A stretch of DNA of 64,000 bases, from sequence record OQ174501.1; one strand, given 5' to 3'. The position numbers and the translations under genes are program-made. Positions within the stretch are counted from its first letter, which is position 1. Each line of letters starts with the position of its first letter. The notes beneath the pieces are model-generated. The model was not told the DNA's origin. It made no database searches and saw nothing but the letters and a program-made list of their open reading frames with translations. Below, one piece after another: positions 3,329 through 46,247 of this stretch. This DNA comes from Escherichia phage REP2.

Positions 3329-3658
3329 ATGAACAAGTTAGAAATTGTCAATGAACTTCGTCGTTGTGCAGAACCCACTCAAGAGGGGTGGGACATCTGG
3401 TACCATGGAGCTTATCTTGGAACTATCGTAAAGATTAAGACTGGTAAATACATGATTATTCGTGAAAGTAAAGATGCTCCAGTAGGTATTCGCAATAATT
3501 TTATGGCAGCGATAAGTTCATTTACGGATGCAGCTTACGAAATTTACCTTGCTGATTATAAAGAATTCCAGGAATCTCAACCAGTTATTCGTTCAATTGG
3601 TGTTAACAAAGCTCAACAGAAAACTTTGTGGCAGCGTATTAAAGGATGGTTTAAATGA
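3329..3658 (+). CDS. Hypothetical early protein (arn.4 position)
   Basis: 109-aa ORF, tight operon spacing; synteny. Confidence 0.6.
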
Positions 3659-4119
3659 AAACATTTGAAGAAAGACTTGAAATGCTAAACGTTGCATTAT
3701 CTCGTGAGACTCCAGAGAGTTTAGCCGAAAAATTTAAATCAGCAGGTTATACTAATTATACGGAAGAAGATGTTCTGAAAGAAGTTCCTGAAATCTGTTG
3801 GCAGCCTGCATACTGGGATGAAAACCAAAAGTATCAACGACGAATTGTATGTGCTGCTAATCGGTTTAAATTAAAGGATGGTGGAACTCTTGTTATTCCT
3901 GGTGCTCGTCATTATTCTAAAGATATGGCAGCAGTTTTAGATGTAGTTAAACCTCAATTAGTTACTCAACAAGTTTGTGATGATGACCAAGGGTTTATTG
4001 ACCAATATAGTAATTATTGGACACGTGAAGAAGCAATGATTATTGCAACTTACGCTGGACAAGTACGTATTGAACGTGGTGGTAGTGAAAAAGAACTTTA
4101 CTCTGAGGACCTTTACTAA
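3655..4119 (+). CDS. Hypothetical early protein (arn.3 position)
   Basis: 154-aa ORF, start overlaps upstream stop (ATGA). Confidence 0.6.
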
Positions 4120-4415
4120 TGAATATTAAAAAGTTTCAAATTGATGGAATTATGAATCAAATCCAGGCGCTGGAATATGCCAATAAAATGATGTCAACTA
4201 ATTGGGGAATTTATACCAATGAACCGGGATTTAAATTCTGTGATATGGAATTAACTAAAAAGCTCGTAGGAAAAGATTATGTATGTCCATTTAGTTCTCC
4301 AGTAAATGGAATGTTAAAACCTGCTTTACGCGATCTTTATATTGCGATGAACGAAGAAATGATAAAAGAATTAAAACGTCAACTGAAGGTGATTCAATTT
4401 GGCCAGGGAAATTAA
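4119..4415 (+). CDS. Hypothetical early protein (arn.2 position)
   Basis: 98-aa ORF, overlapping stop/start. Confidence 0.6.
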   Translation: MNIKKFQIDGIMNQIQALEYANKMMSTNWGIYTNEPGFKFCDMELTKKLVGKDYVCPFSSPVNGMLKPALRDLYIAMNEEMIKELKRQLKVIQFGQGN

Positions 4416-4617
4416 TTCAAAATCTGACTATTTTAATTCTCTCAATGATAAAGATAAAAATCTAATACGGCATTTTATTGTTGAGATGGGATATATTGAT
4501 ACACGTGATTTAAGAGAACATATATTTGAATGTGGTGTAGCTAAAAAGTTTTCATTCACATGCAAATGTTTGAGAGAGGTAATTCAGCACTATGAACAAT
4601 TTAGTCGCAAAACATAA
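4399..4617 (+). CDS. Hypothetical early protein (arn.1 position)
   Basis: 72-aa ORF with four Cys (C45, C55, C57 plus one) that may bind metal. Confidence 0.5.
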   Translation: MAREINSKSDYFNSLNDKDKNLIRHFIVEMGYIDTRDLREHIFECGVAKKFSFTCKCLREVIQHYEQFSRKT

Positions 4618-4700
4618 TTTTAATAAAGCTTCTGTTCATAAGGATAAGAAGAAAGCGTTTAAAGAATCTAATCGCAAACAGAAACATAAGGGGAAGGTCT

Positions 4701-4979
4701 ATGATTATTGATTCTCAATCTGTGGTTCAATACACAATCAAAATTGATATTCTAGAAAAGCTATATAAGTTTCTACCAAATTTATACCACTCAATTGTTA
4801 ATGAATTAATTGAAGAACTACATCTTGAGAATAATGATTTCTTGATTGGAACTTATAAAGACCTCTCAAAAGCAGGATATTTTTACGTAATTCCAGCTCC
4901 AGGAAAAAGTATTGATGATGTATTAAAAACTATAATGATTTATGTCCATGATTATGAAATTGAAGATTATTTCGAATGA
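4701..4979 (+). CDS. arn: Arn, anti-restriction nuclease (McrBC inhibitor, DNA mimic)
   Basis: 92 aa, acidic; matches T4 Arn as remembered; directly upstream of asiA. Confidence 0.85.
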   Translation: MIIDSQSVVQYTIKIDILEKLYKFLPNLYHSIVNELIEELHLENNDFLIGTYKDLSKAGYFYVIPAPGKSIDDVLKTIMIYVHDYEIEDYFE

Positions 4980-5128
4980 GTCATAATCTTGAAAAAGTAA
5001 TCGAGCATAATGTAGCTCAGGAACGCGAGTCGTTCAAGGAATTCGTAGAAAAAATTTTTGAAGAAAATAACACAGACCAGTTTACAAATCAAGCGTCTGA
5101 TGATATTATAATAAAGTCAACTAATTGA
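4976..5128 (+). CDS. Small hypothetical protein (asiA.1 position), 50 aa
   Basis: ATG overlaps the arn stop (ATGA); ORF MSHNLEKVIEHNVAQERESFKEF... is below the track cutoff. Confidence 0.45.
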   Translation: MSHNLEKVIEHNVAQERESFKEFVEKIFEENNTDQFTNQASDDIIIKSTN

Positions 5129-5140
5129 GTGGTATAGTTA

Positions 5141-5413
5141 ATGAATAAAAACATTGATACAGTTCGTGAAATTATTACTGTTGCGTCTATTTTGATTAAA
5201 TTTTCCAGAGAAGATATTGTTGAAAATCGTGCTAATTTTATTGCATTTCTGAATGAGATTGGAGTAACGCATGAAGGTAGAAAGTTAAATCAGAATTCAT
5301 TCCGTAAAATTGTTTCTGAATTAACCCAAGAAGATAAGAAAACCCTCATCGACGAATTCAACGAGGGTTTTGAGGGTGTATATCGATATCTAGAGATGTA
5401 TACAAACAAATAA
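5141..5413 (+). CDS. asiA: AsiA anti-sigma70 factor
   Basis: 90 aa; sequence MNKNIDTVREIITVASILIKFSREDIVENRANFIAFLNEIGVTHEGRKL... matches T4 AsiA. Confidence 0.95.
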   Translation: MNKNIDTVREIITVASILIKFSREDIVENRANFIAFLNEIGVTHEGRKLNQNSFRKIVSELTQEDKKTLIDEFNEGFEGVYRYLEMYTNK

Positions 5414-6070
5414 TTATTTAGCCCTTCCTAATATTCTGGCCGCCTGAGAACATATTGATTCAAGGCGGTCATTACTTATATGATCATTTCTATACCAGTA
5501 CATGGTTATTGTTCCAGCATAGATATTATCCAAATTGAAATATGGACAACTGTACATGTAATTTATTTCGGGAGTAGGCTTTTTAGTTGGTAAAAAAGCA
5601 AATTTTGAGTCGGAATAATAATGACGTCCATTTAAATGAACTGCATATTCATCCATAGTTTTATCAACAGGATATCCTCCAAGTGATTTTTCGCTTATTG
5701 TTGAAGGTAATTTTCCTTCGTATGCTATAATATCAACAAAATAGTTTAAGTTTTTAGGGCGGAAAGAATATACCGCACTAAAGTCTGCCTCAGATGATAT
5801 ATGAACTATCTGGAGTTGTTCCAGGGCGACAGATTCAAAGCGTGCATTTCTTTCCTTTTCAATAATTTCGCTGTATGTTTCATACTTTGATTGCTTATAG
5901 TACTCAAAGAAACTATCTCCCCTATACCAAACAATCGCCATTATAAACAAAAGAATTACGACAGCTACCCGGGAAGCAAGAACTTTCCCGGTAGCATTAT
6001 CTTTGAACAAGCGATCTAGAACACCAAATAGAATATCAGAGGGCGAAAATGATATTCTAGGTGCTGCCAT
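5414..6070 (-). CDS. t: Holin t
   Basis: 218 aa, N-terminal TM helix plus large periplasmic domain; same length as the T4 holin; convergent with asiA. Confidence 0.9.
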   Translation of the reverse strand: MAAPRISFSPSDILFGVLDRLFKDNATGKVLASRVAVVILLFIMAIVWYRGDSFFEYYKQSKYETYSEIIEKERNARFESVALEQLQIVHISSEADFSAVYSFRPKNLNYFVDIIAYEGKLPSTISEKSLGGYPVDKTMDEYAVHLNGRHYYSDSKFAFLPTKKPTPEINYMYSCPYFNLDNIYAGTITMYWYRNDHISNDRLESICSQAARILGRAK

Positions 6071-29061: not shown

Positions 29062-29091
29062 GTTTACAAGTCCCTCGTGTTGTGTTATAAT
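29062..29091 (+). promoter_or_regulatory. Early-type promoter upstream of alc with embedded anti-SD arm
   Basis: GTTTAC (29062-29067), 18-bp spacer, TATAAT (29086-29091); CCTCGTGTT (29073-29081) is complementary to AACATGAGG (29106-29114) overlapping the SD. Confidence 0.6.
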
Positions 29092-29122
29092 AATCTTACT
29101 GACATAACATGAGGACTTTATA

Positions 29123-29626
29123 ATGGATTTGCAGCTTATTACTACTGAGATGGTCGTTGAAGCATACGGTGATACTACAGATGGGATTTCTGTATTCAAA
29201 GGAAATCGTCGAGTTGGATATATCACCGATCTTAAGAAAGATTTAGCTAAGCAAGTCAAGCGGAAAACTACCATTAAAGAATATCGAAATCGTCGTCTTG
29301 AGCAAGCCCGCGATATGCTTCCTGATGCGGTTGAAGAGATGAAAGTCTTTTTAGAAAATCAACTCGCTAAGTATGAGTGCGAAGTGTTCATTAATCAGAC
29401 TCAGCCCAATGTTCATATCAATAGCTGTAAATGCTATATCATCGTTAATCCTTTGACTGGAAAGCATCGTCTTGGAATTAGTAATCCAAATCGTAGTGCA
29501 TCGGATATGGCAGAAGATGTTGAGGCATGCTTTAAAATTTCTAAATCTCCGGCTGAACATCATATTTTAATTAACGGTCTTTCTCAAGACGATATTGTAG
29601 AGGTTATTAAAACTTTATGCATGTAA
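29123..29626 (+). CDS. alc: Alc, host transcription-elongation inhibitor
   Basis: 167 aa, same length as T4 Alc; synteny after rnlA. Confidence 0.8.
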   Translation: MDLQLITTEMVVEAYGDTTDGISVFKGNRRVGYITDLKKDLAKQVKRKTTIKEYRNRRLEQARDMLPDAVEEMKVFLENQLAKYECEVFINQTQPNVHINSCKCYIIVNPLTGKHRLGISNPNRSASDMAEDVEACFKISKSPAEHHILINGLSQDDIVEVIKTLCM

Positions 29627-29970
29627 GTAATTTTACAGCTGGATTGCTATTACTTGTAATAGCATTTGGCGGAACATCTATTATTTTAAAAAATAAGGTA
29701 GAAAGATTAGAAACATCAGTTACTGAAATTACAAAAACGGCCAATGAAAACGCCTTAGCATTAAATAATTTACGAATTCAGTATAATTATATTGATGCGA
29801 TGAATAATAAAAATCGTGAGGCGATTGCTGCTATTGAGCGTGAAAATGAAAAACTGCGCAAAGACGCAAAGAAGGCGGATGTGGTGGCTCGTAAGCCAGG
29901 ATTGGTTGAAAAACAAATCAACAACTCCTTCAACAAGTTCGCAGAAGACATCCAGGACCTTTCTAAATGA
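29617..29970 (+). CDS. i-spanin (Rz-like inner-membrane spanin; pseT.3 position)
   Basis: 117 aa; N-terminal TM FTAGLLLLVIAFGGTSIIL followed by a charged coiled-coil periplasmic domain. Confidence 0.75.
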   Translation: MHVSNFTAGLLLLVIAFGGTSIILKNKVERLETSVTEITKTANENALALNNLRIQYNYIDAMNNKNREAIAAIERENEKLRKDAKKADVVARKPGLVEKQINNSFNKFAEDIQDLSK

Positions 29971-30266
29971 TTAAACTATCAGCAGTAATATTATCTATTG
30001 GTCTTCTAGTTGGTTGTTCGACAAAGCCTCTAGAAGTAAAGAAAGAAACAGTTCATCCTAATTGGCCTGTACAAATAAAGTCATATGACGAAGCTAAACT
30101 ATCTTGGCAAGTTAAAGTTATTGATGGTAAAGCTTGGGTCGGTATGCCATTTGAAGATTCTCAGGAATTTCGTATTTGGCTTAATGATGTAAAACGATAT
30201 GTACACGACCAGAAAACTATGATATGTTATTATCGTCAAGAGTTAAAAGAGGATAAATGTAAATGA
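29967..30266 (+). CDS. o-spanin (Rz1-like outer-membrane lipoprotein; pseT.2 position)
   Basis: 99 aa; signal peptide with lipobox LLVGC (MIKLSAVILSIGLLVGCSTKP); immediately downstream of the i-spanin. Confidence 0.75.
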   Translation: MIKLSAVILSIGLLVGCSTKPLEVKKETVHPNWPVQIKSYDEAKLSWQVKVIDGKAWVGMPFEDSQEFRIWLNDVKRYVHDQKTMICYYRQELKEDKCK

Positions 30267-37472: not shown

Positions 37473-37923
37473 GTTAGAGATTAGAAGTAATTTTAGATGG
37501 CCATCATGTGCATTAAGTAATTTCGCTCAATGGCCTTTCGTTATGGATGGTATTCAATTTGGAGGTCTCGAAGGATTCCTCCAAGGATGCAAGGTGAAAA
37601 ATGTTGAACAACAACGTCGTATATTTGGGTTATCTGGGCTTGCCGCCCAACAAGCTGGAAGGTCTTATGCTAGAGCTCAGGACCGTGGGACCCTCTTCTG
37701 GCTTGGAGTTCCGTTTTCAAGATACTCCCCGGCGTGGAAAGAATTATACACAAATGCATATTTTGAAGCAGCGATCCAAAACAAGGGCTTTCGTGATGCA
37801 TTACAAGCCTCGAAAGGAAAAGTTTTGAAGCACAGCATGGCTAGTGGTCTAACAAAAGATGATACAATACTAACCGAAGCTGAATTTATTAATGTGTTAA
37901 ACCTATTAAGAGATTCTCTATGA
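37459..37923 (+). CDS. NADAR-family (YbiA / DUF1768-like) protein, candidate ADP-ribose / N-glycosidic hydrolase (30.3 position)
   Basis: 154 aa; CALSNFAQWPFVMDGIQFGGLEGFLQGCK resembles the NADAR signature FSNFA-WP-VDG ... EHYFQA-K of E. coli YbiA as remembered. Confidence 0.6.
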   Translation: MKMSELEIRSNFRWPSCALSNFAQWPFVMDGIQFGGLEGFLQGCKVKNVEQQRRIFGLSGLAAQQAGRSYARAQDRGTLFWLGVPFSRYSPAWKELYTNAYFEAAIQNKGFRDALQASKGKVLKHSMASGLTKDDTILTEAEFINVLNLLRDSL

Positions 37924-38783
37924 AGCCTACTATTTTAACTGATATTGATGGAGTATGTTTAAGCTGGCAATCAGGTCTTCCTTATTTTGCCCAGAAATAT
38001 AATCTTCCGTTAGAACATATTTTAAAAATGATCCAGGATGAGAAATTTATTTCTCCTGGTAAACTATTTAATTGCGATGAAGAACTTGGCGTTAAGCTAA
38101 TTGAAAAATACAATCGTTCGGATTTTATTCGATACTTGTCTCCATATAAAGATGCCCTGTGTGTAATTAACAAATTAAAAGAAGATTATAATTTTGTAGC
38201 TGTTACAGCATTGGGTGATTCTATTGACGCTCTGTTGAATCGTCAATTTAATTTGAATGCTCTTTTTCCTGGTGCCTTCTCAGAAGTAATGATGTGTGGT
38301 CATGATTCTTCAAAAGAAGAGTTGTTCAAAAAGGCAAAAGAGAAATATAACGTAATTTGTTATATTGACGATCTCGCTCACCACTGCGACCACGCGAGTG
38401 AAATATTAAATGTTCCGGTTTATTGGATGGCTCGAGGAGAGCGTGACAATATTCCAAAAACTGCTCAGCGAGTTTATACATGGAATGATATAGAAAATAA
38501 GCTTTTTTCACCGAAGGAAAATAAAGAAAGTTTTGATAGTGAAAAAGCTATAAAAGATGTAATTGAGAAGATGGTTAAAAACGATTCTTTTCGTTGGAAC
38601 ACTACCTGGAGAACTCCTGGATTTAATCCGTATAATCCATATTATACACATCCATATAATCCATATTATACACACCCGTATCATATGAATCCATTCCATA
38701 CGTGGAGTTATACTAAGCCTGGTGATGCAGGGTATTTTAATAGATTTACTAGTGGTGATAATATTTTCCAAGGAGCATTCTAA
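37920..38783 (+). CDS. HAD-like hydrolase-fold protein with Tyr/Pro-rich tandem-repeat C-terminus (30.2 position)
   Basis: 287 aa; N-terminal ILTDIDGVCLSW (HAD motif I, DxDG); C-terminal NPYNPYYTHPYNPYYTHPYHMNPFHTW. Confidence 0.6.
   Translation: MKPTILTDIDGVCLSWQSGLPYFAQKYNLPLEHILKMIQDEKFISPGKLFNCDEELGVKLIEKYNRSDFIRYLSPYKDALCVINKLKEDYNFVAVTALGDSIDALLNRQFNLNALFPGAFSEVMMCGHDSSKEELFKKAKEKYNVICYIDDLAHHCDHASEILNVPVYWMARGERDNIPKTAQRVYTWNDIENKLFSPKENKESFDSEKAIKDVIEKMVKNDSFRWNTTWRTPGFNPYNPYYTHPYNPYYTHPYHMNPFHTWSYTKPGDAGYFNRFTSGDNIFQGAF
38628..38699 (+). repeat. 3 x 24-bp tandem direct repeat inside the 30.2-position gene
   Basis: CCGTATAATCCATATTATACACAT / CCATATAATCCATATTATACACAC / degenerate third unit. 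Confidence 0.8.
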
Positions 38784-39052
38784 TGTTTGTCGTTCACACT
38801 ATTTATGAAAATGAAGGTAATACTACACGTGATTACGGTCACGTAAATCAATTTTTTAGATGCAATCCAGAATTCCGAGCTCAAAAAGACGAACGAATTT
38901 TTAAAAAATGTGTAGAGCAAGGTTTCATTTATATCAAGCACTGGATGCAAGGAAATAAAGTTAGAACTACATATCATAAGTCTTTACCTGAGCTTAATGA
39001 TGAATTGATTTATAATAGAGCTGTAAACCAAACCTTGAAGGATGAGCAATGA
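38783..39052 (+). CDS. Hypothetical early protein (30.1 position)
   Basis: 89-aa ORF; overlapping stop/start with neighbours. Confidence 0.55.
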   Translation: MFVVHTIYENEGNTTRDYGHVNQFFRCNPEFRAQKDERIFKKCVEQGFIYIKHWMQGNKVRTTYHKSLPELNDELIYNRAVNQTLKDEQ

Positions 39053-40509
39053 TTCTTAAAATTCTGAATGAAATAGCATCTATTGGATCAACTAAGCAGA
39101 AGCAAGCAATTCTTGAAAAGAATAAAGATAATGAATTGCTTAAACGGGTATATCGTCTGACTTATTCTCGTGGGTTACAGTATTATATCAAGAAATGGCC
39201 TAAACCTGGTATTGCTACCCAGAGTTTTGGAATGCTGACTATTACCGATATGCTTGACTTCATTGAATTCACGTTAGCTACTCGGAAATTGACCGGAAAT
39301 GCTGCAATTGAGGAATTGACTGGATATATCACCGATGGTAAAAAGGATGATGTTGAAGTTTTGCGTCGAGTGATGATGCGAGACCTTGAATGCGGTGCTT
39401 CAGTATCTATTGCAAACAAAGTTTGGCCAGGTTTAATTCCTGAACAACCTCAAATGCTGGCAAGTTCTTATGATGAAAAAGGCATTAATAAGAATATCAA
39501 ATTTCCAGCCTTTGCCCAGTTAAAAGCTGATGGAGCTCGGTGTTTTGCTGAAGTCCGAGGTGATGAATTAGATGATGTTCGTCTTTTATCACGAGCTGGT
39601 AATGAATATCTAGGATTAGATCTTCTTAAGGAAGAGTTAATCAAAATGACCGCTGAAGCCCGCCAGATTCATCCAGAAGGCGTGTTAATTGATGGCGAAT
39701 TGGTATATCATGAGCAAGTTGAAAAAGAGCCAGAAGGTCTAGATTTTCTTTTTGATGCTCCTGAAATCAGTAAAGCTAAAGAGTTTGCCGAAGTAGCTGA
39801 ATCTCGTACTGCATCTAATGGCATCGCCAATAAATCTTTAAAGGGAACCATTTCTGAAAAAGAAGCTCAATGCATGAAGTTTCAGGTCTGGGATTATGTC
39901 CCGTTGGTAGAAATATACGGTCTTCCTGCATTTCGTTTGAAATATGATGTACGTTTTTCTAAACTAGAACAAATGACATCAGGTTATGATAAAGTAATTT
40001 TAATTGAAAACCAGGTAGTAAATAACCTAGATGAAGCTAAGGTAATTTATAAAAAGTATATTGATCAAGGTCTTGAAGGTATTATTCTCAAAAATACCGA
40101 TGGATTATGGGAAAATGCTCGTTCAAAAAATCTTTATAAATTTAAAGAAGTAATTGATGTTGATTTAAAAATTGTAGGAATTTATCCTCACCGTAAAGAC
40201 CCTACTAAAGCAGGTGGTTTCATTCTTGAATCAGAGTGTGGAAAAATTAAAGTAAATGCTGGTTCAGGCTTAAAAGATAAAGCCGGTATAAAATCGCATG
40301 AACTTGATCGTACTCGCATTATGGAAAACCAAAATTATTATATTGGAAAAATTCTAGAGTGCGAATGCAACGGCTGGGTAAAATTAGATGGACGTACTGA
40401 TTACGTTAAGCTATTTCTTCCAATTGCAATTCGTTTACGTGAAGATAAAACTAAAGCTAATACGTTCGAAGATGTATTTGGCGATTTTCATGAGGTAACT
40501 GGTTTATGA
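39049..40509 (+). CDS. 30: ATP-dependent DNA ligase
   Basis: 486 aa; adenylylation motif KADGAR; MILKILNEIASIGSTKQKQAILEKNKDNELLKRVYRLTYSRG... matches T4 ligase. Confidence 0.97.
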   Translation: MILKILNEIASIGSTKQKQAILEKNKDNELLKRVYRLTYSRGLQYYIKKWPKPGIATQSFGMLTITDMLDFIEFTLATRKLTGNAAIEELTGYITDGKKDDVEVLRRVMMRDLECGASVSIANKVWPGLIPEQPQMLASSYDEKGINKNIKFPAFAQLKADGARCFAEVRGDELDDVRLLSRAGNEYLGLDLLKEELIKMTAEARQIHPEGVLIDGELVYHEQVEKEPEGLDFLFDAPEISKAKEFAEVAESRTASNGIANKSLKGTISEKEAQCMKFQVWDYVPLVEIYGLPAFRLKYDVRFSKLEQMTSGYDKVILIENQVVNNLDEAKVIYKKYIDQGLEGIILKNTDGLWENARSKNLYKFKEVIDVDLKIVGIYPHRKDPTKAGGFILESECGKIKVNAGSGLKDKAGIKSHELDRTRIMENQNYYIGKILECECNGWVKLDGRTDYVKLFLPIAIRLREDKTKANTFEDVFGDFHEVTGL

Positions 40510-40691
40510 AAGCTTACTTAGAAACAATTGTCGTGGCTCAAAAAGAAGGTGGAGATGTTTCCACTGCGGTATCGCAGGTTATTCTTGAATTCCCAGATAA
40601 ACTAGCATATGATGAATTCACGGAAAGATTTGATCCATATGAAAAAGGTCCAAAGTTTGAAGTATATCGTACTCTTTTAGCTCTCTATTAA
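40506..40691 (+). CDS. Hypothetical protein
   Basis: 61-aa ORF followed by a hairpin. Confidence 0.5.
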   Translation: MKAYLETIVVAQKEGGDVSTAVSQVILEFPDKLAYDEFTERFDPYEKGPKFEVYRTLLALY

Positions 40692-40692
40692 T

Positions 40693-40720
40693 TAAAGGCC
40701 TTCGGGCCTTTAATTTTATA
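40693..40720 (+). terminator. Hairpin / putative terminator
   Basis: AAAGGCC-TTCG-GGCCTTT followed by AATTTTAT (weak U-tract). Confidence 0.5.
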
Positions 40721-40747
40721 AATAGAATAAACACTAGAGAGGATAAC

Positions 40748-42841
40748 ATGGAACTTATTACAGAATTATTTGACGAAGATACTACTCTTCCGATTACAAA
40801 CTTAAATCCAAAGAAGAAAATACCACAAATTTTTTCAGTTCATGTTGATGATGCAATTGAACAACCAGGCTTTCGTTTATGTACCTATACATCTGGAGGT
40901 GATACTAATCGTGATTTAAAGATGGGCGATAAAATGATGCACATTGTTCCTTTTACATTAACTGCTAAAGGTTCAATTGCTAAATTAAAAGGTCTTGGTC
41001 CAAGCCCGATTAATTATATCAATTCAGTTTTTACTGTTGCAATGCAAACAATGCGTCAATATAAAATTGATGCCTGTATGCTTCGTATTCTTAAGTCTAA
41101 AACCGCCGGTCAAGCTCGACAAATTCAACTTATTGCTGATAGACTCATCCGCAGTCGTTCAGGTGGCAGATACGTCCTTCTTAAGGAACTCTGGGATTAC
41201 GATAAAAAGTATGCATATATTCTTATACATCGTAAAAATGTATCACTAGAAGACATTCCAGGAGTTCCAGAAATTAGCACCGAGCTTTTTACTAAAGTTG
41301 AATCGAAGGTCGGTGATGTTTATATCAATAAAGATACTGGAGCTCAAGTAACCAAAAATGAGGCAATTGCTGCATCTATTGCACAAGAAAATGATAAACG
41401 TTCTGACCAAGCCGTAATCGTTAAAGTTAAAATTTCCCGTAGAGCAATTGCACAAAGTCAGTCATTGGAATCTTCTAGATTTGAAAGTGAATTATTCCAG
41501 AAGTATGAATCTACAGCAGCTAATTTTAATAAACCAGCTACTGCACCTTTAATTCCCGAAGCAGAAGAAATGAAAATTGGAATTAATTCATTAGCTTCTA
41601 AAACAAAGGCAGCAAAAATTATTGCTGAAGGAACGGCAGATGAACTTCACTATGATTATAAATTCTTTCCAATGAGTCAAGTCGGTGAAGTTTCAGAAAA
41701 AATTAAAGAAGTAATTTTTAATGCAATTAAAAATGAACCAACTACTTCAATAAAATGTTTAGAGAAATACGCAGCAGCTGTAAATCAATTCTTTGAAGAT
41801 TATAAAGATAAATGGCTTGCTAATCATAATAAAAATCGTAAAGGACAACCAGATGAAGTCTGGGAAGAAATAACTAAAAATTCCTGGAACGCAGCAAAAA
41901 CTAAATTCCTCAAACGAATGATTTACAGTTTTTCTGGAATTGGTGCTGGTCCAATGATTGATATTACTATTGCCCGCGATGGTTCTAAATATACTCCATC
42001 ACAAAAGCGTGGCATTAGAGAATATTGCGGTTCAGGATATACTGACATCAATAATCTTCTTTTAGGTCGTTACAATCCAGAACGATACGATGTAATGAGT
42101 GAAAAAGAAATTGAATCTGCTATAAATAACTTAGATTCAGCTTTTGAAAATGGTGACCGTATACCAGAAGGCATTACAGTTTATCGTGCTCAAAGTATGA
42201 CTGCTCCTATATATGAAGCGTTAGTTAAAAATAAAGTGTTCTACTTCAGAAATTTTGTATCTACTTCTTTAACTCCTATCATTTTTGGACGTTTTGGAAT
42301 CACACATGCTGGTATTGGTCTTTTAGAACCAGAAGCTCGTAACGAATTAACAGTTGATAAAAATGAAGAAGGAATAACTATTAATCCAAACGAAATAAGA
42401 GCGTATAAAGAAAATCCTGAATATGTTAAAGTTCAAATAGGATGGGCAATTGATGGAGCTCATAAAGTTAATGTTGTATATCCAGGAAGTCTCGGAATAG
42501 CAACAGAAGCTGAAGTTATTCTACCACGCGGATTGATGGTCAAGGTTAATAAAATAACTGATGCTTCTAATAATGACGGAACAACATCTAATAATACAAA
42601 ACTCATTCAAGCTGAAGTTATGACCACGGAAGAGCTCACCGAATCGGTAATCTATGATGGAGACCATTTAATGGAAACTGGTGAATTGGTTGCAATGACA
42701 GGTGATATTGAAATAGAAGACAGAGTTGACTTTGCATCATTTGTTTCATCAAATATTAAACAGAAAGTAGAATCATCTCTTGGAATTATTGCGTCTTGCA
42801 TAGATATTACAAACATGCCTTACAAGTTCGTTCAAGGATAA
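40748..42841 (+). CDS. alt: Alt ADP-ribosyltransferase (virion-injected)
   Basis: 697 aa; N-terminus MELITELFDEDTTLPITNL...; R-S-E ART motifs (YRAQ, FVSTSL, EAEVILPRG); matches T4 Alt. Confidence 0.9.
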   Translation: MELITELFDEDTTLPITNLNPKKKIPQIFSVHVDDAIEQPGFRLCTYTSGGDTNRDLKMGDKMMHIVPFTLTAKGSIAKLKGLGPSPINYINSVFTVAMQTMRQYKIDACMLRILKSKTAGQARQIQLIADRLIRSRSGGRYVLLKELWDYDKKYAYILIHRKNVSLEDIPGVPEISTELFTKVESKVGDVYINKDTGAQVTKNEAIAASIAQENDKRSDQAVIVKVKISRRAIAQSQSLESSRFESELFQKYESTAANFNKPATAPLIPEAEEMKIGINSLASKTKAAKIIAEGTADELHYDYKFFPMSQVGEVSEKIKEVIFNAIKNEPTTSIKCLEKYAAAVNQFFEDYKDKWLANHNKNRKGQPDEVWEEITKNSWNAAKTKFLKRMIYSFSGIGAGPMIDITIARDGSKYTPSQKRGIREYCGSGYTDINNLLLGRYNPERYDVMSEKEIESAINNLDSAFENGDRIPEGITVYRAQSMTAPIYEALVKNKVFYFRNFVSTSLTPIIFGRFGITHAGIGLLEPEARNELTVDKNEEGITINPNEIRAYKENPEYVKVQIGWAIDGAHKVNVVYPGSLGIATEAEVILPRGLMVKVNKITDASNNDGTTSNNTKLIQAEVMTTEELTESVIYDGDHLMETGELVAMTGDIEIEDRVDFASFVSSNIKQKVESSLGIIASCIDITNMPYKFVQG

Positions 42842-42844
42842 ATC

Positions 42845-44902
42845 ATGGAACTTATTACAGAATTATTTGACGGCGCCGAAGCGCCGGTTGTTAACTTAAA
42901 TCCTAAGCATAAAATACCTCAAATTTTTGCTATTCAAGCCGGTGAAGAAAGCGTTCTTCCTGGATTTCGATTTTGTACATACACCTCTGGCGGTGATACG
43001 AATAAAAACGTTAAGCCAGGCGACAAAATGATGCATATCGTAATGATAGGTGTTAATGAGAAACTATCATTAGTTAAGCTTAAAAACTTGGGTGGAAATC
43101 CAATTGGCGTCATTAATGCTGTTTTTGATACTGCTCTTCAAACAATGAAGCAGTATAAAATTGATGCATGCCTATTCCGCGTACTAAAAAGTAAAACAAA
43201 TGGCGCAGCTCGTCAAATGCAAGTTATTGCTGACCGTTTAGTACGTACTAAAGGAGCAGGTCGATATGTTCTTTTAAAGGAAATCTGGGATTATGATAAA
43301 AAGTACGCATATATTATGGTTTACCGTAAAAATGCCAATTTAGAAGACATTCCAGGTGTACCTCCTATTTCAACCGAGTTATTCACAAAAGTTGAATCAA
43401 AGGTTGGTGATGTTTATGTAGACGTTAAAACAGGTAATGCTGTTCCTAAAGCTGTTGCTGTTGCTGCTTCTATTGCTTTAGAAAATGATAAGCGCACGGA
43501 TCAAGCTGTTATTCAGAAAACTAAAATTAGTCGTCGATTAGCAGCACAAGCTCAATATTCTACTGTTGATGCTTCACTTCAGGGTGATAGCTTCGCTGCT
43601 AAGAAATATCAAGAGTTTGAATCTAAAGTTCCGGTATATAAAGCAGAAGGACCAATGAACTCTGGCGTTATTCAGATTGGTTCAAACTTTAGCAAAGGAG
43701 CTATCGGTGGTATGAGAAGTGCTTCTCGTTTTAAATCTAGTGATTATGAACTCGAAAGCTTCCGAAATCATATTGCATTGGCTCATGCACGTTTACGTGA
43801 TCCATCTATCAAGTTACAGAGCGATATAACATATCAAGGTTCTCAAGAATATTTAAAGAATAAAGAATTCTTTGATTATAAAACTGATAAAATTTTAAGC
43901 GATCTTGCTGATATTAATATTTCTAATAGCTTTGATGTTATTAAGAAAATTATCAATGATTTAGTTAAAGGTTCTAAAGCTACACCAGATGAAAAGACAG
44001 CTATTATTCAATTTGTAATGAATGGAATTTATAAATTAATTGATGAATCTACTGCTCAGGCATATGAATATGCAAGCACTGAAGTAACTCCAAAAGGATT
44101 AACTCAGGCTGAATCTGATGTAATTGAAGATTATTGCGCAGATTCATATGTTGAAATGAACTCGTTCCTTCTAGGTAAACCTGATTCTACACGTGAAGAA
44201 TATATGGAACGTGCTATTAAGCACATTGAGACGTTGGATTCTGCATTTGCTAAAGGTTCAGTTCTTCCTCCGGGAACTACACTTTACCGTGGCCAAGAAG
44301 TTACTTTTAAAACTTTACGTCATAATATAGAAAATAAAATGTTCTATTTCAAGAACTTTGTATCTACTTCACTCAAGCCAAATATCTTCGGTGAATATGG
44401 TAAAAATTATATGGCTTTAGATGACGCTGGAACAGTATTTTCTGGTGAAGGAGAAGGTTCAGTTGATGCTGAAGATTTAATGCATATGGGTAGTCATTCT
44501 ACATATGCGAATGAAGACGCTGAAACTAATGTAGGTATGGTAATTAAAGGAGCTGAACGAGTTAAAGTTATCGTTCCAGGTCATTTATCAGGATTTCCAT
44601 CCGAAGCTGAAGTTATTTTGCCGCGTGGAATTTTACTGAAGATTAATAAAGTAAGTACGTACATGATGAAAGAAACCGCTTATAATAAGTATCTAATTGA
44701 AGGCACGATTGTTCCTCCTTCTGAACAATTAGAGGAATCGGTATATGATGGTGACCATTTGATGGAAACCGGAGAAGTTCGTCCAATGGCTGGATTTAAT
44801 CAATTCCTTGTAGAAGAATCAAAAGAAGAGGAAAGCGAAGTTTCTCAAATCTTAGCTTCTTTGGTTAACATCAACGGAATGTCTAAAAAGTTCAAAATGT
44901 AG
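42845..44902 (+). CDS. Alt-like ADP-ribosyltransferase paralog
   Basis: 685 aa; same N-terminal ~200 aa scaffold (MELITELFDGAEAPVVNL...), diverged middle, retained YRGQ / FVSTSL / EAEVILPRG motifs. Confidence 0.85.
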   Translation: MELITELFDGAEAPVVNLNPKHKIPQIFAIQAGEESVLPGFRFCTYTSGGDTNKNVKPGDKMMHIVMIGVNEKLSLVKLKNLGGNPIGVINAVFDTALQTMKQYKIDACLFRVLKSKTNGAARQMQVIADRLVRTKGAGRYVLLKEIWDYDKKYAYIMVYRKNANLEDIPGVPPISTELFTKVESKVGDVYVDVKTGNAVPKAVAVAASIALENDKRTDQAVIQKTKISRRLAAQAQYSTVDASLQGDSFAAKKYQEFESKVPVYKAEGPMNSGVIQIGSNFSKGAIGGMRSASRFKSSDYELESFRNHIALAHARLRDPSIKLQSDITYQGSQEYLKNKEFFDYKTDKILSDLADINISNSFDVIKKIINDLVKGSKATPDEKTAIIQFVMNGIYKLIDESTAQAYEYASTEVTPKGLTQAESDVIEDYCADSYVEMNSFLLGKPDSTREEYMERAIKHIETLDSAFAKGSVLPPGTTLYRGQEVTFKTLRHNIENKMFYFKNFVSTSLKPNIFGEYGKNYMALDDAGTVFSGEGEGSVDAEDLMHMGSHSTYANEDAETNVGMVIKGAERVKVIVPGHLSGFPSEAEVILPRGILLKINKVSTYMMKETAYNKYLIEGTIVPPSEQLEESVYDGDHLMETGEVRPMAGFNQFLVEESKEEESEVSQILASLVNINGMSKKFKM

Positions 44903-44931
44903 TTTACAAGTCCCTCGTGTTGTGTTATAGT
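44902..44931 (+). promoter_or_regulatory. Early-type promoter, second copy of the alc promoter-leader cassette
   Basis: GTTTACAAGTCCCTCGTGTTGTGTTATA identical to 29062-29089; ACTGACATAACATGAGGA identical to the alc leader. Confidence 0.6.
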
Positions 44932-44962
44932 AGTTTTACTGACATAACATGAGGAACACAAA

Positions 44963-45253
44963 ATGAAATCTTCTTTGCGCTTTTTAGGTCAAGAACTCGT
45001 CGTTGAGGGCGTTATTCCCGCTGATAACGCTTTCAATGAAGCAGTTTATGATGAATTTATTAAAATTTTCGGAACCGATAAAAAGTTTGGAATTTTTCCT
45101 TCTGAAAATTTTTCAAAGCCAGAACAGACTGAAAGTATTTTCCAAGGTGTAGTAACAGGTAAATTTGAGTCAGAAGCTCCGGTAAAAATTGAGGTTTATA
45201 TTGAAGAAACCTCTGTTGCTTCAGTTGCTGCTTTTATTTCATTCCGTAAATAA
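44963..45253 (+). CDS. Hypothetical protein (alt.-1 region)
   Basis: 96-aa ORF with SD GAGGA upstream. Confidence 0.55.
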   Translation: MKSSLRFLGQELVVEGVIPADNAFNEAVYDEFIKIFGTDKKFGIFPSENFSKPEQTESIFQGVVTGKFESEAPVKIEVYIEETSVASVAAFISFRK

Positions 45254-45257
45254 AAAT

Positions 45258-45282
45258 ATGGGGACCTTTCGGTCCCCATTGT
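45258..45282. terminator. Bidirectional hairpin terminator between the alt block (+) and gene 54 (-)
   Basis: TGGGGACC-TTTC-GGTCCCCA flanked by A/T runs on both sides. Confidence 0.7.
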
Positions 45283-46247
45283 TATATTGCTCCTAATATT
45301 TTACTTTGCGAATTGACAATTCCTGTCATAGTATTAATATTTGAAATGCTTCCTGCAGTTCCCCCTAATCTACTAAGTCGTGAAAGCGAATTAGATAGTC
45401 CAGTAACACCTCCACTATTTCCGAGAACGCTTTGAATACCATTTATAGTAGCAGATTCAAGCCATTCAAGGGCAGCTTGTCTATCAACTGCTCCAGCCTG
45501 CATCACTCTATACGCAAAAGTAACGTCAAATGTAGTTATTTGGTTATCTCCATCATATGATAACTCAGGAGCGCTCACTGATATTGGAATGCATCCAGTG
45601 AACATCACCGCAGTATGAGGTAATCCATTGCGAGAATGAAGATTAACCTGAATATCTGCCTCGACATCTTGCGGCAAAGCACGCAATCCAGTTACTGGGT
45701 CTTGAACAGCGTTAACCCAGTCTTGCATTGCACGATAGTTACAAGCTTCTGAATCCATTCTGAATGAAATAACCAAAGGGTCTAATTCTCTTCCAGTTAT
45801 ACGAATATTAGGAGAATTATAGTTCCAGTCAGTTTCATAGGATAATCTATTCTCTGGCATTTTTACAGAATATATCATCAATCCAGATGAGTTATATGCC
45901 ATGTTAAAGAAGTCAATTAAATATGTACCAACTGTAAATGAGCCTAATAAACTCTGAACAGTACGCTGACTCATAGCGCCAATAAGATATTTACTGACTC
46001 CCGATTTTCTTATTAGTTTTTGTGTGCCAGCGGTAATTAGCGTGGTAATTCCCTGATTAATATCACCTTGAGTTAATCCCAACCAATCTGAATTTAGACC
46101 CAAGTTATTATAAGCAAAGTTACTAATTGAGCTTATTAACGATGAGCTTTTAGTTGATGGAGTTGTAGCAAAAACACAGCTGAACATATTATTACGTTGG
46201 AAGTCTGCGTTTATTGCTTGATTATTAAATTCCTCTAAAGAATACAT
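45282..46247 (-). CDS. 54: Baseplate tail-tube initiator gp54
   Basis: 321 aa (T4 about 320); synteny. Confidence 0.9.
   Translation of the reverse strand: MYSLEEFNNQAINADFQRNNMFSCVFATTPSTKSSSLISSISNFAYNNLGLNSDWLGLTQGDINQGITTLITAGTQKLIRKSGVSKYLIGAMSQRTVQSLLGSFTVGTYLIDFFNMAYNSSGLMIYSVKMPENRLSYETDWNYNSPNIRITGRELDPLVISFRMDSEACNYRAMQDWVNAVQDPVTGLRALPQDVEADIQVNLHSRNGLPHTAVMFTGCIPISVSAPELSYDGDNQITTFDVTFAYRVMQAGAVDRQAALEWLESATINGIQSVLGNSGGVTGLSNSLSRLSRLGGTAGSISNINTMTGIVNSQSKILGAI

Follow-up and report, generated by a model that had tools for sequence, protein, structure and literature searches.

The question of two Alt enzymes in one phage

Alt is the textbook example of a phage enzyme that is injected together with the DNA, and nearly all the Alt experiments in the literature searched concern the protein of phage T4. 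In the 64,000-nucleotide (nt) stretch of Escherichia phage REP2 analysed here (sequence record OQ174501.1; hereafter the window), two adjacent open reading frames, ORF1 and ORF2, occupy the place of T4 alt, which raises the question of whether both encode genuine ADP-ribosyltransferases (ARTs), how the second is related to T4, and whether the two enzymes would act on the same host proteins. The best explanation, to which we give a probability of roughly 0.8, is that these are two co-transcribed late Alt-family ART genes between gene 30 and gene 54, ORF2 being a conserved paralogue lost by T4 and the ORF1 position being polymorphic.

The pair as such is already known. Over positions 40400-45300 the window matches Escherichia phage REP3 (OQ174502.1, Tequatrovirus) at 100% identity, and the REP3 record annotates both genes as 'Alt-like RNA polymerase ADP-ribosyltransferase'; the duplication is also mentioned in a note of the T4 GenBank record, in a 2006 paper describing a full-length alt duplication in phage 44RR (Nolan et al. 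2006, PMC1524935), and in a 2026 paper on phages 6phi13 and SHFML-11, whose pair was described as paralogues with 43% identity and probably diverged function (PMC13600099). The present analysis adds the history of the T4 remnant, the allele and cassette mosaic of ORF1, a chimeric gene in phage vB_EcoM_KAW1E185 (KAW1E185), the purifying selection acting on ORF2, and confirmation of a promoter-leader repeat shared with alc.

Two full-length Alt-family genes in tandem

ORF1 and ORF2 lie exactly at 40748..42841 and 42845..44902 on the + strand, separated by 3 nt, and can be divided as follows:

40748..42841, + strand: ORF1 (A1), 697 amino acids (aa), positional orthologue of T4 alt, T6-type allele
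40748-41452, + strand: ORF1 N-domain, codons 1-235
41453-41992, + strand: ORF1 helical centre (predicted), codons 236-415
41993-42637, + strand: ORF1 ART domain, codons 416-630, with R480, S505-T-S507 and E587/E589
codons 631-697, + strand: ORF1 C-tail, with YDGDHLMETGE at 636
42845..44902, + strand: ORF2 (A2), 685 aa, second Alt paralogue, intact form of T4 alt.-1/alt.-2
42845-43549, + strand: ORF2 N-domain, codons 1-235
43550-44104, + strand: ORF2 helical centre (predicted), codons 236-420
44105-44719, + strand: ORF2 ART domain, codons 421-625, with R482, S507, S509, E587 and E589
codons 626-685, + strand: ORF2 C-tail, with YDGDHLMETGE at 634

The two proteins are 41% identical over their full length (BLASTP, E = 1e-160). 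Both match the Pfam family PF03496 (ADPrib_exo_Tox) far above its cut-off of 23.4 bits (ORF1, 9.6e-38 and 129.9 bits; ORF2, 4.6e-20 and 72.2 bits), and both match phrog_802, 'Alt-like RNA polymerase ADP-ribosyltransferase', from end to end (ORF1 residues 1-696, 1e-272; ORF2 residues 1-685, 2e-256). Judged by these matches both ORFs are full-length Alt-family ARTs, and the original prediction of two intact tandem genes is confirmed. T4 Alt itself (NAD+--arginine ADP-ribosyltransferase, 682 aa, NP_049811) shares with both ORFs the locus, the family and a four-part architecture.

The catalytic motifs are located at equivalent positions: YRAQ at 479, FVSTSL at 503 and EAEVILPRG at 587 in ORF1; YRGQ at 481, FVSTSL at 505 and EAEVILPRG at 587 in ORF2. 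Of the three motifs that had been listed as common to both proteins, FVSTSL and EAEVILPRG are indeed shared, whereas YRGQ is found in ORF2 only; the corresponding motifs of T4 Alt read YRSQ and EME, compared with YRAQ and EAE in ORF1. The catalytic residues survive careful alignment, R, S-T-S and E-x-E being kept in both ORFs; among 22 aligned Alt homologues, reaching down to 42% identity, R482, S507, S509, E587 and E589 of ORF2 do not vary, and the R and ExE positions are in register with CdtA, CPILE-a and C3cer. The ART fold of R-S-E mono-ADP-ribosyltransferases is present as well. Each gene is thus predicted to encode an arginine-specific (ExE-type) mono-ADP-ribosyltransferase. The R-S-E enzymes C3, VIP2, iota-Ia and Vis are toxins that bacteria secrete and that have delivery domains of other kinds, whereas Alt proteins combine a phage-specific N-domain with a helical centre that has no homologue in the PDB; in addition, C3 has QxE (C3cer alignment) where Alt has ExE.

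Identity between ORF1 and ORF2 is distributed very unevenly. Residues 1-235 are 67-68% identical, the first nine (MELITELFD) completely so, which bears out the shared N-terminal part that had been predicted; the synonymous divergence (dS) of the N-domains is about 1.6. Over residues 236-415 identity in the alignment is about 17-20%, and BLASTP detected no similarity between the two centres when compared alone (ORF1 236-415 against ORF2 236-420, E = 3.6), indicating that the unrelated stretch measures about 180 residues and not the 300 first proposed, to which a divergent loop at about 536-580 can be added. The ART domains are 36-37% identical including this loop (7-22%), and the C-tails about 36-42%, with YDGDHLMETGE in common.

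AlphaFold models (pLDDT 72.0 for ORF1 and 72.7 for ORF2) give both proteins the same layout: the first dozen residues disordered, an alpha/beta domain at about 15-216, an all-helical region at about 230-470 whose last part falls in the Pfam-defined ART domain, the ART beta-core, and a low-confidence tail starting at about 645 (ORF1) or 630 (ORF2). Both proteins are therefore modelled as a four-part build: a short N-terminal propeptide with an alpha/beta domain of about 200 residues, an all-helical region, a C3/VIP2-type ART domain, and a disordered C-terminal tail carrying YDGDHLMETGE. By sequence no Alt structure was found in the PDB (no hits for ORF2; weak CdtA/iota hits only for ORF1 residues 413-482), and the profile search for structures reached ART domains only. 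The residue aligned with the C3cer aromatic (AYPGQYE) before the ExE motif is F in ORF2 (...SGFPSEAE), I in ORF1 (...LGIATEAE) and A in T4 Alt (...LAPSNEME); from what is known of C3-like ARTs, we take this position to belong to the ARTT substrate-recognition loop.

The N-domain was found in 69 clusters among 1.84 billion representative proteins, nearly all of them 600-712 aa long; among ten N-domain proteins of odd length that were scanned, seven match the ART family (one weakly) and three, P0183 and P0184 among them, have no Pfam match. The N-domain therefore appears to be dedicated to the Alt family. Its use as a delivery module fused to other types of effector was considered and set aside, the evidence (the 69 clusters and the metagenomic proteins P0183 and P0184) being too thin. 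P0184 (541 aa) has a weak Alt-type N-domain (E = 7.5e-7) and a C-terminal part without ART motif or Pfam match, and may carry a non-ART cargo; P0183 (485 aa) combines the N-domain with a short ART-like end, where YK stands at the catalytic Arg position and ENSE in place of ExE, and may be a degenerate ART. A separate family, PF26846.1, appears as a precomputed Pfam match in all full-length Alt homologues; it was not returned by the local Pfam scan, and probably covers the N-terminal or central part of Alt.

ORF2, the T4 remnant and the distribution of the second gene

The order of genes in T4 is 30, alt.1, alt (682 aa), alt.-1 (61 aa), alt.-2 (67 aa), alt.-3, 54, and a note in the T4 record describes alt.-1 and alt.-2 as an apparent duplication of the initial part of alt. 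These two small genes (NP_049810, NP_049809) are colinear, at about 94% nt identity, with the first ~117 codons of ORF2 (42845-43192), and a 1-nt deletion in an A-run breaks their reading frame. Positions 4400-4899 of the T4 locus correspond to 42686-43192 of the window (94.3%) and positions 4891-5300 to 44883-45294 (93.2%); the T4 sequence skips from 43192 to 44892, and the junction falls in a 9-bp direct repeat:

43184..43192, + strand: CTAAAAAGT, left copy of the direct repeat (T4 deletion junction)
44883..44891, + strand: CTAAAAAGT, right copy of the direct repeat (T4 deletion junction)

The colinear flanks and the junction at CTAAAAAGT indicate that T4 lost 1699 bp of a full-length gene of the ORF2 type. 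Consequently, alt.-1 and alt.-2 are the remnant of a full-length gene and not a duplication 'of the first part', and ORF2 (685 aa) is its intact form.

The ORF2 segment missing from T4 was found in 401 of 498 Tequatrovirus-level records (about 80%; the denominator being the records that carry the neighbouring ligase gene) at 90-100% nt identity, so that the two-gene state is the rule in the genus and T4 the exception. In 396 Tequatrovirus records the best match to ORF2 reaches at least 95% identity, and no record has its best match between 60 and 80%; the T6 copy is 97.8% identical in aa sequence, and Dhakavirus A2 proteins 44-56%. Tandem alt pairs are present in T6 (BBF63616/BBF63615), RB51 (alt, alt.-2), SHFML-11, 6phi13, the JS98 group of Dhakavirus (also IME281 and MN04) and Aeromonas phage 44RR: the same pair in the same place, with nothing essential different. 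On this distribution the alt duplication is neither recent nor special to REP2: it is older than the split between Tequatrovirus and Dhakavirus and represents the majority state. LR597657.1, 'Escherichia phage T4_ev240', contains the full ORF2-specific segment (94.3% nt) that the reference T4 lacks; T4_ev240 may be a recombinant or have a different T-even background.

Compared with its T6 counterpart, ORF2 has a ratio of nonsynonymous to synonymous substitution rates (dN/dS) of 0.042; the comparison with OE5505 gives 0.033, and the four modules taken singly give 0.036-0.06. Values of this size (~0.04) show strong purifying selection, which, together with the retention of ORF2 at full length, points to a functional gene.

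ORF1, a different allele from that of T4

The original prediction matched ORF1 to T4 Alt, and this holds for the two ends of the gene (codons 1-235 and 625-697), not for codons ~245-610. In nt sequence, codons 1-235 are about 97% identical, codons ~245-610 only 41-72%, and identity returns to 95-98% from codon ~625 to 697; in aa sequence, identity is 99-100% over residues 1-235, 34% in the centre, 63-65% in the ART domain and ~93% over the last 67 residues. Between ORF2 and T4 Alt, identity amounts to 9-12% over the centre and 36% over the ART domain, and neither ORF has the high identity to T4 Alt across centre and ART domain that marks the same effector cassette. The known targets of T4 Alt are consequently not simply transferable to either protein. 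ORF1 and the T6 A1 gene are 92-100% identical in every module compared, and T4 and OE5505 carry the same alternative allele; by these comparisons codons ~240-620 of ORF1 are an allele different from that of T4, and ORF1 is of the T6 type.

The same pattern was found in Dhakavirus: between the A1 proteins of IME281 and MN04, identity is 97-98% at the ends but drops to 36% in the centre and to 62% in the ART domain. Codons ~404-620 of IME281 A1 (3495-5579 of the compared stretch) are 88-93% identical in nt sequence to ORF1 (window 41960-42610), whereas the flanks of this shared ART part are only 41-63% identical between IME281 and REP3, and the neighbouring ligase genes 65%, which indicates a fairly recent exchange of the ART part of the ORF1-type gene between Tequatrovirus and Dhakavirus. 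The ORF1 position is polymorphic, its centre-plus-ART cassette being swapped between alleles and genera by recombination in the conserved flanks.

Recombination also joins the two paralogues. KAW1E185 has a single alt gene of 685 aa (3501-5558 of the compared stretch) that reads as an ORF1::ORF2 chimera: it resembles ORF1 over nt 1-1806 (95%) and ORF2 over nt 1698-2058 (88%), with the crossover in the shared EAEVILPRG region. The chimera was presumably made by unequal crossover at the EAEVILPRG-coding region, and on its sequence recombination between alt paralogues does occur. The N-domains of paralogues in one genome (67-68%, 66-68% and 56% identity) are closer to each other than those of cross-genus orthologues (~45-47%), and this grouping by genome is suggestive of ancient gene conversion, or of adaptation to the capsid core in parallel.

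We consider it conceivable, at slightly less than even odds, that alt is a polymorphic-effector locus in which lineage-specific N- and C-terminal delivery parts serve as recombination anchors for an exchangeable centre-plus-ART cassette. On this reading ORF2 would be a second, conserved ART that is also injected and has host targets of its own, perhaps a protein of defence or takeover and not RNA polymerase alpha, overlooked because T4, the model phage, deleted it.

A presumed late transcription unit

Two signals precede ORF1:

40694..40711, + strand: G+C-rich terminator-like hairpin AAAGGCC-TTCG-GGCCTTT, read from the sequence, at which transcription from upstream would end; a terminator is annotated at the equivalent site in OE5505 and KAW1E185
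40717..40724, + strand: TATAAATA, the T4 late-promoter consensus, 24 nt 5' of the ORF1 start

A conserved terminator upstream of alt was reported previously (Nolan 2006, PMC1524935). In the 3-nt gap between ORF1 and ORF2 there is no promoter-like site or terminator, and AAGGA is found six nt 5' of the ORF2 ATG. By analogy with T4, TATAAATA at 40717 is the presumed late promoter of both alt genes; the succession of hairpin, TATAAATA and an ORF2 that starts 3 nt past the ORF1 stop presumably constitutes one late transcription unit.

Proposed function and weighing of the alternatives

T4 Alt is a protein of the prohead core (~40 copies; PMC9958956) that is cleaved at both termini by gp21 (PMC9026906) and leaves the head together with the DNA, and whose targets include RNA polymerase alpha and other host proteins (PMC5512222, PMC9958956). 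A T4 Alt glutamate-to-alanine mutant published as E577A is without ADP-ribosylation activity (PMC11404850); the mutated residue is taken to lie in the ExE motif, though RefSeq numbering gives E574/E576. MELITELFD and YDGDHLMETGE are kept in T4 Alt as in both ORFs, and with them the L-x-E type sites of the N-terminal MELITE and the C-terminal HLME, at which cleavage is documented for T4 Alt only. Since these sites are kept, the route of T4 Alt is the best guess for both proteins: they would be incorporated into the prohead core, processed at either terminus by the gp21 protease and ejected with the DNA into the host, where both would ADP-ribosylate host proteins using NAD+. For ORF2, late expression, packaging, processing and injection are all inferred in this way from T4. 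The original prediction called the N-terminal ~200 residues the capsid-targeting part, a description with experimental backing only for the short propeptides at both termini of T4 Alt, as signals processed by gp21 (PMC9026906); the N-domain as a whole may have such a role.

It is plausible that the two enzymes hit different host targets, an expectation derived from the unrelated helical centres, the differing ARTT-loop residues and the variable internal ART loop; the diversified target specificity originally proposed is, on these sequence differences, a reasonable inference. The alternative that ORF2 is a redundant back-up or mainly a structural core protein, with the activity and targets of ORF1 and a divergence due to neutral drift after duplication, we regard as unlikely. 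It would fit the loss of the second gene in T4, the non-essential nature of Alt itself (PMC9026906) and the single chimeric gene that suffices for KAW1E185, but it is difficult to reconcile with a dN/dS of ~0.04 in every segment of ORF2 (centre and ART domain included), with invariant catalytic residues, or with a gene kept in about 80% of the genus and represented by an orthologous A2 in Dhakavirus; unrelated centres, together with F, I and A at the ARTT-loop position of ORF2, ORF1 and T4 Alt, are likewise hard to square with identical substrates. Less probable still, and by a clear step, is that ORF2 is not injected and acts late inside the producing cell, in the manner of ModA/ModB from within, or is not packaged. 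Packaging of ORF2 is without direct evidence and the function of the N-domain is not known, which leaves room for such a role; the N-terminal propeptide of ORF2 is however identical to those of ORF1 and T4 Alt, the whole N-domain is kept (67%) along with the C-terminal motif around the L-x-E gp21-type site, the gene would be co-transcribed with ORF1 behind a late-promoter consensus, and the N-domain is almost confined to Alt-like proteins of 600-712 aa. That the second copy is a duplication produced in assembly or sequencing, or a pseudogene in decay, is suggested only by the tandem arrangement and by the pseudogene remnant in the homologous region of T4, and was rejected as practically impossible: the copies are only 41% identical with dS ~1.6, the 685-aa frame is intact and under strong purifying selection, and 401 independent records carry the gene at 90-100% nt identity.

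Several points weigh against the preferred explanation of two co-transcribed late ART genes with a conserved, functional ORF2. T4 is altogether without ORF2, so that the gene is dispensable at least there, and the searchable literature yielded no experimental work on ORF2, on its orthologues or on the targets of the T6-type first Alt. The structural models are of moderate confidence (pTM 0.53-0.58) and derive from shallow alignments (19-22 sequences), and the helical centre has no known homologue, which makes its role in target recognition a guess. A scan of 38-47 kb found another TATAAATA at 42121, inside ORF1, and from base composition we estimate that about eight copies per strand would be expected by chance in 64 kb; the promoter assignment consequently rests on position and on the T4 precedent. 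The internal copy was considered as a separate promoter for ORF2 and is treated as a chance occurrence on account of the A+T-rich composition.

About four of five close relatives of T4 keep intact the second Alt gene that is wrecked in T4, and the first Alt of many of them, REP2 and T6 included, has an effector cassette unlike that of T4. With a second Alt and differing cassettes, T-even phages may differ from one another in which host proteins they modify during the first seconds of infection. The T4 Alt target list should therefore not be carried over to other T-even phages, and the targets of the second Alt and of the T6-type first Alt are a worthwhile experimental lead.

Neighbouring genes and the promoter-leader shared with alc

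The gene order at 38-49 kb of the window is that of the T4 30-to-29 region: on the + strand, homologues of 30.2 and 30.1, DNA ligase (39049..40509), a 61-aa ORF, ORF1, ORF2 and a 96-aa ORF; downstream of the latter, on the - strand, genes 54, 48 and 29. The remaining features considered were:

40506..40691, + strand: 61-aa ORF, alt.1-type small gene between 30 and alt (Pfam PF24647 Phage_blade, 6.8e-28; phrog_1976; same position in T4)
44902..44955, + strand: putative early (sigma-70 type) promoter and leader, with GTTTACA and TATAGT 17 nt apart and a GAGGA Shine-Dalgarno sequence in the leader, overlapping the ORF2 stop codon
29062..29115, + strand: the other copy of the promoter-leader, 5' of alc (29123..29626)
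44963..45253, + strand: 96-aa homologue of T4 Alt.-3 (DUF5498; Pfam PF17602, 3e-62; T4 annotation; PMC11618068)
45258..45279, no strand assigned: putative bidirectional terminator hairpin separating the alt.-3 homologue from gene 54; OE5505 has one annotated in the corresponding place

The 61-aa ORF, named alt.1 after the T4 RefSeq record, marks the upstream boundary and lies outside the alt pair. Downstream of the pair, positions 44902-44955 and 29062-29115 are identical at 51 of 54 nt, and the gene 3' of 29115 is Alc (phrog_1253, 3.2e-82); the predicted reuse of the alc promoter-leader by the downstream cassette is thereby borne out for the promoter-leader only, the coding parts behind the two copies being unrelated. 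The 96-aa alt.-3 homologue is probably driven by the early promoter at 44902, as a transcription unit separate from the alt pair that the bidirectional terminator at 45258-45279 would close. Repeated promoter cassettes at module borders (PeSLs) are a known feature of T4-like genomes (PMC2839356, PMC4122927). The repeat seen here resembles them in being a near-identical early promoter-leader that recurs far apart, before alc and before the alt.-3 homologue, and at the edge of a variable region; it differs in that only two copies were found in the window, and membership among the PeSLs, which a stem-loop component defines, is not claimed.

T4 Alt.-3 mutants with the C-terminus extended to 110 or 117 aa escape the CmdTAC defence by blocking the degradation of CmdA (PMC11618068). 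The 96-aa ORF of REP2 ends in ...ISFRK*, with the terminator hairpin directly downstream.

Directly 3' of alc are ORFs of 117 aa (29617..29970) and 99 aa (29967..30266), the latter with an N-terminus, MIKLSAVILSIGLLVGCS, that resembles a lipoprotein signal. These two would correspond to the Rz/Rz1-type spanin genes of T4 (pseT.3/pseT.2). Upstream of the ligase gene, the 30.2-like protein (ORF 37920..38783) carries a short tandem peptide repeat, NPYNPYYTHPYNPYYTHPYHMNPF, at its C-terminal end (window 38590..38700).

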